The translations under genes and the position numbers were made by a program. Below, piece after piece: positions 21,041-23,954 of a stretch of 64,000 nucleotides of DNA. The DNA is from Candidatus Bathyarchaeia archaeon. GTDB taxonomy: Archaea; Thermoproteota; Bathyarchaeia; 40CM-2-53-6. The number at the start of each line of letters is the position of its first letter. Positions within the stretch are counted from its first letter, which is position 1. The DNA is taken from the NCBI GenBank assembly GCA_049517415.1, contig JBEKSC010000006.1:33018-97017 (forward strand). Direction: 5' to 3'. Below the pieces are notes generated by a model. That model made no database searches and was not told the DNA's origin. It saw nothing but the letters and a program-made list of their open reading frames with translations.

Positions 21041-22762
21041 TTGTCTGAGAGCCGACCAGTCGTCATGGGTACACGTGGTGCCATTACCACTTCAAACTAT
21101 ATGGCAACATCGGCCGGATTTGAAATCCTTCTGGCCGGGGGAAACGCAATCGATGCTTCCATTGCTGCAGGATTGGCGCTGCATGTTGTCGAACCACATA
21201 TGAATGGAATCGGCGGCGAAACCCCAATACTTCTGTACTCTGCTAGAAAGCGTAGAATCTTTGCCATATCAGGGCAAGGGCCTGCCCCAAAGGCAGCGAC
21301 TCTCGAATTCTTCGAAGGAAACGGAATCAGGTTAATTCCAGGCGACGGTCTTCTTCCCGCAACGGTCCCCGCGTCCTTTGACGCATGGATTACTTGCCTT
21401 AGGTTTTTTGGAACGATGACTCTCAGGGAAGTGATTGCCCCCGCCATTAGACTGGCCGAGGAAGGTTTTCCGGTGTATGCCGCGCTTCATGAGATTGTGA
21501 CGCGACATGCCAAGCGTTTTCTCAGCGAATGGCCTACAACTGCAAGAATCTATCTTCCGCGAGGCAGAATTCCTCGAATTGGCGAGGTTCTGAGGCAAAA
21601 TGAACTGGCGAAGACTCTTCGCAGCCTAGCGGAGGCGGAGCGCCGCGCTGGGAAGAACAGGGAGAAGGGGCTCGAAGCAGCGAGGCACTATTTCTACGAA
21701 GGGCCTATAGCGCGAGAGATCGCGCAGTTCGCGGCAAAACGATCATTCAAGGATGCAACCGGAAAATATCACAACGGGTTAATCACCGCGGAAGATCTCG
21801 CCGACTACAAAACGAGAATAGAGAAAACTGTCAACATAGACTACAAAGGTGTAACCGTTCATAAATGCGGACCTTGGAGCCAAGGACCCGTTCTCCTCCA
21901 ACAGTTACGATTGCTTGAAGACTACGATCTAAGACGACTTCGACACAACTCAGCCGACTATATTCATCTAATCACGGAAGCATCAAAGCTTGCTTTCGCG
22001 GACCGGGAAGCTTTCTACGGTGACCCGCTTTACACCGACGTTCCTCTCACAAGACTACTTTCGCGGGACTACTCTAGGAAGAGAAAGGAGCTTATCGACA
22101 TGAGAAAGGCGTCACTAACACTCCGGACAGGCAGCGGATCTCACATCCCAGTGTCAGAAGGTACTCGGCTCTATACTGGTGACACGACCCACCTTGATGC
22201 CGTCGACTCAGATGGTAACATGGTTTCTGCAACCCCTAGCGGCGGGTGGATTACGAGTTCTCCCGTAATCGAGGGTCTGGGGTTTCCTCTGGGAACACGA
22301 GGCCAAATGTTCTCATTAGACGCTGCACACCCGAATTGTCTGGCGCCAGGGAAACGCCCGCGAACAACGTTAACTCCAAGCCTCATCAGTTCGAAAAGAC
22401 GACCTGTTCTGGCCTTTGGGACGCCTGGCGGAGACCAACAAGACCAGTGGGCACTTCAATTCTTTCTCAATTTCATGGAGTTCGGCATGGATCTCCAGGC
22501 AGCGATCGATGCTCCATCGTTCCATAATCAGCATTTTCCAAGCTCCTTCTATCCTAGGAAGGCCGAGCTTGGCAGCCTGTACGTGGAAGGGCGAATACCC
22601 AGAGGAATCGTGAACGAATTGAGGAGTAGAGGTCATAACGTGATTGTCCAAGGTGATTGGGTGAACGGCCGTATGACAGCAGCACATTATGATTGGGAGA
22701 ATAATGTAGTGAGTGCCGCCGCCTCGTCGCGATATCAGATAGCCTACGCATTAGCACATTAA
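21041..22762 (+). CDS. ggt: Gamma-glutamyltransferase family protein
   Basis: GGNAIDA, autocleavage site DTTH, PGKRPRTTL and GTPGG motifs. Confidence 0.92.
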   Translation: MSESRPVVMGTRGAITTSNYMATSAGFEILLAGGNAIDASIAAGLALHVVEPHMNGIGGETPILLYSARKRRIFAISGQGPAPKAATLEFFEGNGIRLIPGDGLLPATVPASFDAWITCLRFFGTMTLREVIAPAIRLAEEGFPVYAALHEIVTRHAKRFLSEWPTTARIYLPRGRIPRIGEVLRQNELAKTLRSLAEAERRAGKNREKGLEAARHYFYEGPIAREIAQFAAKRSFKDATGKYHNGLITAEDLADYKTRIEKTVNIDYKGVTVHKCGPWSQGPVLLQQLRLLEDYDLRRLRHNSADYIHLITEASKLAFADREAFYGDPLYTDVPLTRLLSRDYSRKRKELIDMRKASLTLRTGSGSHIPVSEGTRLYTGDTTHLDAVDSDGNMVSATPSGGWITSSPVIEGLGFPLGTRGQMFSLDAAHPNCLAPGKRPRTTLTPSLISSKRRPVLAFGTPGGDQQDQWALQFFLNFMEFGMDLQAAIDAPSFHNQHFPSSFYPRKAELGSLYVEGRIPRGIVNELRSRGHNVIVQGDWVNGRMTAAHYDWENNVVSAAASSRYQIAYALAH

Positions 22763-22828
22763 TGCGAGTGACTCTCGAAGCGCCATTGAAGATAAGCACA
22801 CACTGGTAGGATACCTATACAATTGTAC

Positions 22829-22858
22829 TGGTGGGCCGGGAGAGATTTGAACTCTCGA
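22829..22858 (-). repeat. Isolated tRNA 3' end (T-arm, acceptor strand and CCA); imperfect direct repeat of 23687-23716
   Basis: Minus strand TCGAGAGTTCAAATCTCTCCCGGCCCACCA; no D-arm or anticodon upstream. Confidence 0.85.
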
Positions 22859-22934
22859 GCAGTCTTGAGTACTTTCATTCATCTCTGGTTCTTCTTGCTT
22901 TCAAGAAACTCTCTATATTCGGAAGAGTGGGCCA

Positions 22935-23708
22935 TTGATTCCGGAAGGAACGAAAATCGATATCATAACAAGAGTCCAGTCAGGTCAGTCGATTCGTCAC
23001 GTTGCACAAGATCTTGGCATTCCACTTTCAACTGCTTACCATCACGGCCGGAGTTTCTGTAATCATCAATCGCGAATCGAGATGAACATGCTGAGGCAAG
23101 GCCAGCTGGGTTACTTGCTAGGGATGTTCGTAGGAGACGGGAGTCTCATTCGGGATAAGCCTCGAGGGGAGTTCCTTGTCAAGATTGCTTTGAACAGGAG
23201 AAGAGATTTGGACATTGTTCAATTCGTTACGCTAATGTTTGAAAAAGCAGGTAAGAAAGTCAACTTTCTAACTGAGCGAGGCATGATCATAATTAGAGTC
23301 TGGTCTAAGATTTTCTATGAATTCATCGAAGATTACGTTAAGCTCGAAAGAAACCATCTATCCCATCATCACACGAAAATTCTCTTGCGCACCCAGCGAT
23401 GGACTCGGGAGTTTGCTCTTGGTTTCATTGGCGGCCTAATAGACAGCGATGGCCATGTCGTTAGCAACTGGAAAGGCGGTCATTACGGTGCGGTAGTGAC
23501 TACGAGTAGTAGTTCTCTCAAACGACAACTCTGCAGTCTATGCGACGCTCTTGGTATCAATGTGACCAGCCATGTACAAGCGCGTGACCCCTTTCAGGGC
23601 AAGTCTCTTTATTCAGTGTATATCCGGTCGCCTGATTTGCATGCATTATGTGGAACACTACTTTCCGTAAAACATTCGAGGTTTCATGGTGGGCCGGGGC
23701 GGATTTGA
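22935..23708 (+). CDS. HTH + double-motif LAGLIDADG endonuclease-like protein
   Basis: N-terminal SIRHVAQDLGIPLSTAY HTH; YLLGMFVGDG and FIGGLIDSDG motifs; last codons overlap the tRNA 3' end in antisense. Confidence 0.85.
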   Translation: MIPEGTKIDIITRVQSGQSIRHVAQDLGIPLSTAYHHGRSFCNHQSRIEMNMLRQGQLGYLLGMFVGDGSLIRDKPRGEFLVKIALNRRRDLDIVQFVTLMFEKAGKKVNFLTERGMIIIRVWSKIFYEFIEDYVKLERNHLSHHHTKILLRTQRWTREFALGFIGGLIDSDGHVVSNWKGGHYGAVVTTSSSSLKRQLCSLCDALGINVTSHVQARDPFQGKSLYSVYIRSPDLHALCGTLLSVKHSRFHGGPGRI

Positions 23709-23781
23709 ACCACCGACCACCTGTTTACAGTTTGTTGTCTCGTGTCAGGCAGGTATCCTAACCAGACTAGACGACCGGCCC
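23687..23781 (-). tRNA. tRNA-Val(GAC) with a 17-nt non-canonical intron at 39/40 (23724-23740); CCA encoded
   Basis: GGGCCGG acceptor; CCTGC-CT-GAC-AC-G|CAGG anticodon arm restored on removing AGACAACAAACTGTAAA; GGTGG-TTCAAAT-CCGCC T-arm; relaxed BHB. Confidence 0.88.
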
Positions 23782-23954
23782 AAAGTGGCGTTGAATGAAG
23801 AGCGCAGAGAAATAAAGACTACCCAATAGGTTGCACCCTTTCCGAGAGTTCCATGAGCCTGAGGTTGGGTCGAAGCGACTTTAGGGCGCCAACTTCGTTA
23901 AGAAATCGGAAGGTCTTTTTGTGAAGAGGAGAAATGTTGTAGGAGCTGGTAGGT

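Follow-up and report, generated by a model that had tools for sequence, protein, structure and literature searches.

Why should a gene for a putative homing nuclease lie between two copies of a tRNA 3' end, with its own stop codon inside one of them? The original prediction for this 64,000-nt stretch of bathyarchaeal DNA (the window) saw here a minimal selfish element that swaps the end of a tRNA-Val gene. Our comparison with relatives makes it very probable that the unit is a mobile, end-replacing cassette. We also think it likely that the cassette is an intron-less homing element and that its family, here called A, is engaged with a second family, B, in a two-way arms race over the T-stem of one tRNA gene.

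Table 1. Features of the cassette locus in the window, with the basis on which each was assigned.
Feature	Position	Strand	Basis and remarks
tRNA-Val(GAC) gene	23687..23781	-	CCA encoded; Rfam tRNA match; anticodon read by hand
tRNA-Val(GAC) intron, 17 nt, position 39/40	23724..23740	-	By-hand reading; Rfam gives a 19-nt insert
Replacement 3' end (T-stem GGTGG/CCGCC, T-loop, acceptor strand, CCA)	23687..23716	-	Repeat search; cassette-supplied
Stranded, apparently previous 3' end, nt 47-76, T-stem GAGAG/CTCTC	22829..22858	-	Repeat search
TATA-like tRNA promoter region	23808..23823	-	Conserved in relatives; putative function
Host gamma-glutamyltransferase (GGT) gene, syntenic flank	21041..22762	+	Outside the cassette; yardstick of vertical inheritance
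Two-part motif TAC/GTTTCA, about 15-20 nt, CTTT	22867..22903	+	Kept in A and B cassettes
Family-A HTH and double-LAGLIDADG gene, 257 aa	22935..23708	+	ORF; Pfam; model; alignment

The two 30-nt tRNA ends at the window locus (Table 1) are spaced 858 nt apart and differ at exactly six positions, tRNA nucleotides 50-52 and 62-64, and pairing is intact in both T-stems, GAGAG/CTCTC and GGTGG/CCGCC (with a U.G pair as the partner of G51). Sequence and repeat search thus agree with what had been predicted for the two ends. They agree equally on the gene between them, whose last codons and stop are the complement of the replacement end: the protein tail HGGPGRI is antisense to the tRNA end, and the TGA (23706-23708) falls within the T-loop complement. 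The tRNA is left intact, the old GAGAG end has moved to the far side of the nuclease gene, and the nuclease stop is fixed in the new T-loop. The same stranded element stands in the same place in a close relative (G305), where it has one acceptor-strand change, and a 14-nt look-alike of the Val D-arm beside it (22805-22818, plus strand) is not kept in that relative and is probably due to chance.

Read by hand, the anticodon is GAC (23746-23744), and the Ser or Tyr identity given by ARAGORN was rejected in favor of Val(GAC) with an intron at 39/40. In the window genome (G000), a whole-genome search with the Val(GAC) 5' half gave a single match. The bulge-helix-bulge of the intron is relaxed, with one G.A mismatch in the central helix. 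The nuclease ORF is not housed in such an intron, as the sole intron measures 17 nt and the ORF lies 3' of the tRNA gene on the opposite strand. The ORF list holds no integrase or transposase between the two tRNA-end copies, in keeping with the original prediction, and there is no whole or split tyrosine integrase of the pNOB8/SSV type at the attachment site. All six PF00589 matches in the genome lie on other contigs (C2, C3, C9 and C16), none of them near the window locus.

Between the stranded end and the start codon, both families keep a two-part motif that is probably the cassette promoter; its first half occurs 28 times in the genome against about 20 expected, not a clear enrichment. A sigma-70 promoter scan, with a model unsuited to archaea, stayed at chance level. 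A consensus-fold search before the stranded ends found no conserved RNA fold beyond the T-arm itself, and a ribozyme-like or splicing structure there was rejected. The GC content of the cassette is 45-47%, so little below that of its flanks as to be uninformative.

The allele assembles as a single contig of 1119-1180 nt with zero differences in all four public sequencing runs examined, none of which is marked as its possible source, so it is not an assembly artefact, and the layout is found again with proteins about 50% identical, so it is not a product of chance. A joint from 22858 to 23743, seen in three of the four runs, was considered as an empty allele and rejected: a 2192-nt contig implies about 1.9 kb between the two points, and the loose end matches G305, which makes it a G305-type allele. 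In a short X18 contig, 26 other letters separate a GAGAG end from a Val 5' half; one side has only 30 letters, and we do not attribute the contig to the window organism.

By Pfam, the A protein matches LAGLIDADG_3 (E 3e-12) and Hom_end and, weakly, an HTH at its N-terminus, bearing out the HTH and the two LAGLIDADG motifs first noticed in the letters. The motif helices, YLLGMFVGD68 and FIGGLIDSD172, end in aspartates that are invariant in all 24 aligned A proteins and that align with the motif aspartates of PI-SceI, which we take to be its catalytic residues. The predicted structure (pLDDT 87, pTM 0.84) has the two acidic-ended helices and the two-domain fold of a monomeric LAGLIDADG enzyme, and a fold search with it returned I-DmoI and PI-SceI as top matches (E 8e-10, TM about 0.5 over the query), with I-DmoI filling the top ranks. 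A protein search gave 27 relatives, and 24 sequences were aligned; viral contigs held no relative of A. Sequence divergence places the gene under purifying selection, with a dN/dS of about 0.2 (0.18-0.31 in 22 of 23 pairs with dS below 1.2). In a tree without an outgroup root, 14 Val-type A proteins group apart from family B (support 98/98). The family is rare: any match to the A profile occurs in 14 of 401 genomes of the class, and a substantial Val-type A gene only in G000, G315 and, truncated, G128.

The layout recurs across the family. Homologues were expected to end inside tRNA 3' ends, and 20 of the 24 aligned A proteins close with GGPGR[ITN], a tail encoded by the complement of a non-GAGAG arm, while all 21 A loci of the Val(GAC) type overlap the tRNA 3' end. 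The supplied arm is non-GAGAG at every one of the 21, being GGTGG/CCGCC in the subclade of the window or GCCGG/CCGGC; at one further A fragment (L041) no tRNA was seen. The duplicated end that was likewise foreseen for homologues could be read at 16 of the 21 (15 by script, L027 by eye), each time of GAGAG type and each time with the nuclease gene between the new-ended host gene and the old end. These 16 come to about 11 after near-identical loci are merged; four loci are without a stranded end (L008, L014, L030 and L031) and one more is without upstream sequence.

Among the 11 loci tabulated, the unit is 853-897 nt long in nine, and an insertion and a stack account for the length of the remaining two. 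The stranded fragments in this set begin near nt 42-47 and never take in the intron, and their match to the tRNA 5' of the T-stem extends over 5-7 nt in six loci and 0-4 nt in five. The stranded end appears to be the 3' end of the previous resident, on the evidence of L025, where it runs on into 17 nt identical to the flank of the empty G158, including its non-CCA end, and L032, where the next gene is the same as in the empty G311. The GAGAG arm itself is found in 11 empty family-level alleles; matches of a stranded end to the flank or next gene of an empty relative, or to a B remnant, exist for only three of the 11 loci.

The tRNA gene was also compared across the class. The Val(GAC) 5' half gave 115 matches in 114 of the 401 genomes, and 90 of these alleles were examined, part of them by eye; the genomes behind the allele and locus counts are kin and not independent events. 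In the host family, 24 of 27 genes are readable and divide into 12 GAGAG, 9 GCCGG and 3 GGTGG, and in the host genus (19 of 20 readable) the corresponding numbers are 8, 8 and 3. Outside the host family, 61 of 62 readable genes are GCCGG-like (GCCGG, CCCGG, ACCGG, GCTGG or GCCAG) and one, in G191, is GAGAG. Control tRNAs of the host genus each show a single 5' T-stem strand, in 11 of 11 Ile(GAT) genes (with one wobble variant on the 3' strand), 16 of 16 Arg(CCG) genes and 18 of 18 Val(CAC) genes, counts that omit two 5'-only Arg fragments and one non-tRNA match. Extra tRNA-Arg(CCG) 5' halves followed by shared non-tRNA sequence occur at L248 (G236) and L249 (G325), either stranded fragments or split-tRNA halves, and three genomes (L233, L238 and L245) have a tRNA-Arg(CCG) with an intron-like insert in the T-loop.

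Empty alleles with a GAGAG arm had been predicted, and they exist. The clearest comparison sets G307, empty and GAGAG, beside G128, which has an A remnant and GCCGG: the two show no difference in the first 63 nt of the gene, share the intron and are 95.4% identical over 2.7 kb of flank, and they differ only in T-stem and occupancy. The view of GAGAG as the displaced original arm stands in so far as GAGAG is the immediate predecessor; it is probably not the ancestral host arm. Because the outgroups are GCCGG-like almost throughout and family B supplies GAGAG, this arm is probably derived from B.

Family B is a second HTH-LAGLIDADG gene, 18% identical to A in a profile comparison. Its C-termini read GGPGE[TNI], the antisense of the GAGAG arm, in 7 of 16 proteins and GGPGR in none of the 16, and the ends that it strands are non-GAGAG in four of four cases (L023, G272, L028 and L029). 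In G272, B stands alone, supplies GAGAG and strands GATGG/CCGTC; G278 and G329, with one base of difference in the first 66 nt, carry GCCGG. An ORF of G272, a member of the host genus, is 100% identical to a protein assigned by name to Bathyarchaeia, on which the placement of the host in that class rests. The two families are also stacked on one another, in both orders, and the arms alternate in every stack read. L023 runs tRNA(GAGAG)-B-[GCCGG type]-A-[GAGAG] with both genes intact, A overlapping the GCCGG-type end and B lying between that end and the intact tRNA. L029 runs tRNA(GCCGG)-A-[GAGAG]-B-[decayed GCCGG] with A intact and B frameshifted, L028 has the same order with B truncated, and L022/L024 retain a C-terminal scrap of B, so that in each of these a broken B lies behind an intact A, as when older nucleases in a tandem stack decay farther out.

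A simple mechanism would account for these layouts. Nuclease A would cut a GAGAG tRNA-Val(GAC) gene near nt 43-48, where most stranded fragments start, and repair from an occupied chromosome would copy the donor 3' end (GGTGG or GCCGG, still pairing) together with the nuclease gene. The new arm would be immune through three changed bases per strand, and the stranded GAGAG copy through loss of the anticodon-side half-site. B has the reverse layout, supplying GAGAG and stranding GCCGG- or GATGG-type ends, presumably by cleavage of its own. As A and B swap opposite arms, each invasion would rebuild the target of the other. We hold it likely that LAGLIDADG cleavage drives the swap, and probable that the T-stem bases are what the nuclease discriminates.

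After invasion the nuclease genes would decay and the installed arm remain. Decay is seen in frameshifts and, at L021, in an insertion (1728-2918) encoding a TnpB/Cas12f-like protein (PF07282), a related end of which lies on contig C44 of the window genome, that splits the A gene. Eight GCCGG alleles have no A gene: three (G293, G236 and G224) show clear A C-terminal scars after the arm (E 4e-11 to 8e-6), two (G278 and G329; E 5e-5 and 2.5e-4) show doubtful ones, which do not rise above background hits (4e-4) and which the overlap with the tRNA in part imposes, and three show none. Decay that leaves arms behind would explain why the T-stem of tRNA-Val(GAC) is polymorphic across the genus. The cassette also moves between lineages: the G000 and G315 blocks are 90.3% identical over 998 nt, against 66.4% nucleotide and 65% amino acid identity for the syntenic GGT, a contrast that indicates lateral transfer of the block. 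Similarity to the G315 block stops at 23826. An intron identical to that of the window is found in L021, yet with different flanks, and the G315 intron resembles it, suggesting that conversion extends upstream of the T-arm. Taken as a whole, we lean towards a toggle in which two barely related nucleases each recognise the arm that the other installs and rewrite it by compensatory base-pair swaps. If so, the T-stem of tRNA-Val(GAC) in two bathyarchaeal genera would record the last invader and not host ancestry or translational need, and the non-native GAGAG in half of the sampled genes would have arrived by gene drive.

End duplications at this tRNA also arise without a nuclease in cis, as two loci indicate. 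The closest relative, G305 (L205, G305:C3, 2742-4746), has flanks 91-93% identical to those of the window and the same stranded GAGAG end next to GGT, with a 1.9-kb insert made up of an ABC ATPase and permease pair and a GCCGG tRNA; it has no nuclease gene. The insert is 88.7% identical to the distant G325, against 65-71% in the flanks, and was apparently acquired from a G325-like donor; this allele is present in three of the four sequencing runs. One reading is that a break made by A was repaired from a resistant donor; nuclease-free recombination would explain the allele equally well. The only outgroup GAGAG gene, in G191 (L128), has a decayed duplicate 1.1 kb downstream around two other ORFs, presumably a PIN-domain and an antitoxin-like protein, and no LAGLIDADG match was found in this duplication. 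Elsewhere in the window genome, a multi-intron tRNA on C11 (14678-15969) has an identical 3'-end duplicate, with the same arm, 1185 nt away; no nuclease or integrase lies inside, and by its motifs we take the enclosed gene to encode a DegP/HtrA-like protease. More repeated tRNA 3' ends occur in that genome at C7 29904 and 37452 and at C2 122864 and C4 118981, the C2 copy beside an integrase match.

These nuclease-free duplications at tRNA-Val(GAC) and around the protease-like gene speak for a different origin, in which the units are mini-islands inserted by a trans-acting integrase, or through homology-facilitated recombination where a tRNA gene serves as a hotspot, with the LAGLIDADG gene as cargo or as what is left of a larger element; duplicated tRNA 3' ends are, moreover, described as the classic attL/attR signature in the available text of PMC3293823. 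We regard this as unlikely, given the near-constant unit length (853-897 nt in nine of the 11 tabulated loci) and inserts that held no integrase ORF wherever examined, with none near the window locus. The C11 duplication has identical arms, whereas at Val the arm type tracks the nuclease family, and a cargo gene would have no need of a stop codon joined to the T-loop.

Even if cleavage drives the homing, immunity might lie with the intron, with the anticodon arm or with the newly formed junction, and the T-stem alleles would then hitch-hike. The window intron, common to L021 and similar in G315, could share in immunity, and in B-like cassettes at Thr (L087) and Pro (L089) the two copies do not differ in T-stem, which means that the wider class does not always recode. 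At the A loci, by contrast, introns vary widely and the arm rule never breaks, the shared intron and 5' half of G128 and G307 leave only T-stem and occupancy to differ, and the arms in stacks alternate strictly, all of which makes hitch-hiking improbable. A domesticated host protein that binds DNA or regulates the tRNA in antisense, or a second end serving as an alternative spliced exon, would fit the N-terminal HTH, the purifying selection and the antisense overlap with the tRNA. It would sit poorly with a gene that is rare, patchy, laterally transferred and often broken, with two invariant motif aspartates, with stranded ends that gather pairing-breaking changes (L001, L028 and G305) and with the lack of conserved RNA structure before those ends in the fold search; we consider it very improbable.

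The end-replacing cassettes at tRNA-Val(GAC) belong to a wider class, for which a profile search gave 280 representatives at E 1e-10 or better, counted by sequence match alone. Distant A relatives (29-39% identity) are found at the 3' ends of Pro and Ile tRNA genes or immediately 5' of Asp, Lys and Leu tRNA genes, where the 5' end is clearly duplicated in two cases (anticodons by hand), and in 27 of 39 B-like loci examined a tRNA 3' end lies within about 270 nt of the ORF end. Among individual loci, a distant A relative at tRNA-Ile(GAT) (L034, 3025-4818) brings in GCCGG and has a GAGAG end stranded at a distance of 1.7 kb, the same arm pair as at Val on a different tRNA, with a 212-aa ORF without a Pfam match in between. 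The 5'-end version of the cassette is seen at L035, where 31 nt of a Lys tRNA start are duplicated exactly (453-483), and at L038, where 28 nt of a Leu tRNA start recur (2767-2794) with an apparent compensatory D-stem change. Read by eye, a stranded tRNA-Thr(GGT) end at L012 (about 318-375) has a seemingly intron-like T-loop insert that the intact gene is without. At L077/L220 (G200:C26; ORF 2504-3592 in L220) a B-like ORF runs in sense through a whole tRNA-Val(CAC) gene, and an orphan Val(GAC)-like end with the T-stem GAGGG/CCCTC follows directly. A tRNA-like end is present in three degenerate copies around and beyond a B-like ORF at L116 (G331:C58), perhaps an older stack.

Compensatory T-stem changes, stray tRNA 3' fragments and moving tRNA introns are usually read as host evolution or as integrase scars, and the cassettes offer an assayable mechanism for all three in archaea, lateral intron movement included. 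They would also extend the kind of arms race known from the WHO elements of yeasts to a structured RNA, in which escape requires swaps that preserve pairing and may therefore cycle among few alleles. T-stem pairs tune elongation-factor binding, a relation known mainly from bacteria, and the drive may therefore exact a measurable cost in translation. Two small nucleases and four natural target alleles, two to six bases apart, make a compact test of homing specificity.

Among known systems, I-DmoI, I-Tsp061I and the LAGLIDADG domains of inteins share the monomeric two-motif fold predicted for A; they are encoded inside introns or inteins, with which their PDB titles are consistent. The A ORF, unlike the I-DmoI type, lies outside the tRNA and needs no splicing. 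Elements of the pNOB8/SSV type and the tRNA-Thr insertion of Caldiarchaeum duplicate a tRNA end, and the rebuilt tRNA inherits element sequence, with protection from further invasion proposed and an integrase or recombinase explanation given for the tRNA-Thr locus (PMC3293823). Those elements are integrase-based, and the word LAGLIDADG occurs nowhere in the available text of that paper, whereas the window cassette has no integrase. Phage T4 SegB is a free-standing nuclease able to read a T-stem-loop; it is a GIY-YIG enzyme of a phage that spreads a tRNA region, and the available text describes no end swap or stranded copy (PMC2330249).

Closer in layout are the mORFs of fungal mitochondria (Allomyces atp6; Glomus atp6, atp9, cox2 and nad3), endonuclease ORFs that bring a foreign 3' end and strand the native end about 1 kb downstream, where it matches an empty relative (PMC3630166). 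They share with the cassette the ORF-borne new end and the stranded native end. They differ in residing in organellar protein genes, often as in-phase fusions, and the available text describes no RNA-stem recoding or reciprocal pair (PMC3630166). A literature search, mostly of papers outside subscription journals, did not turn up cassettes of this kind at tRNA genes of archaea.

The nearest counterpart is the WHO elements of Torulaspora and Lachancea yeasts, in which a LAGLIDADG gene brings a replacement 3' end for an essential host gene and leaves the old end downstream, in tandem clusters ordered so that the most recent arrival is closest to the gene, and for which allele-specific cleavage and an arms race have been demonstrated (PMC7282813; bioRxiv 10.64898/2026.08.13.744650, both in the available text). 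The nuclease gene with a replacement end, the displaced old end and the stacks are all common to the two systems. The WHO target, by contrast, is the yeast protein gene FBA1, the WHO protein is related to inteins and carries a zinc finger, and the terms archaea and tRNA do not occur in the main text of the preprint. The window protein, at 257 aa, has only HTH and LAGLIDADG domains and targets an archaeal tRNA, of which about 30 nt are replaced with compensatory stem recoding. Its gene runs antisense to the tRNA and stops within the T-loop, and a pair of families seems to alternate between few alleles. By analogy, then, the window cassette would work like the WHO elements and is not a member of the WHO family: end-replacing homing elements are a known kind, and what stands out here is the apparently reciprocal nuclease pair and the T-stem polymorphism that would result from it.
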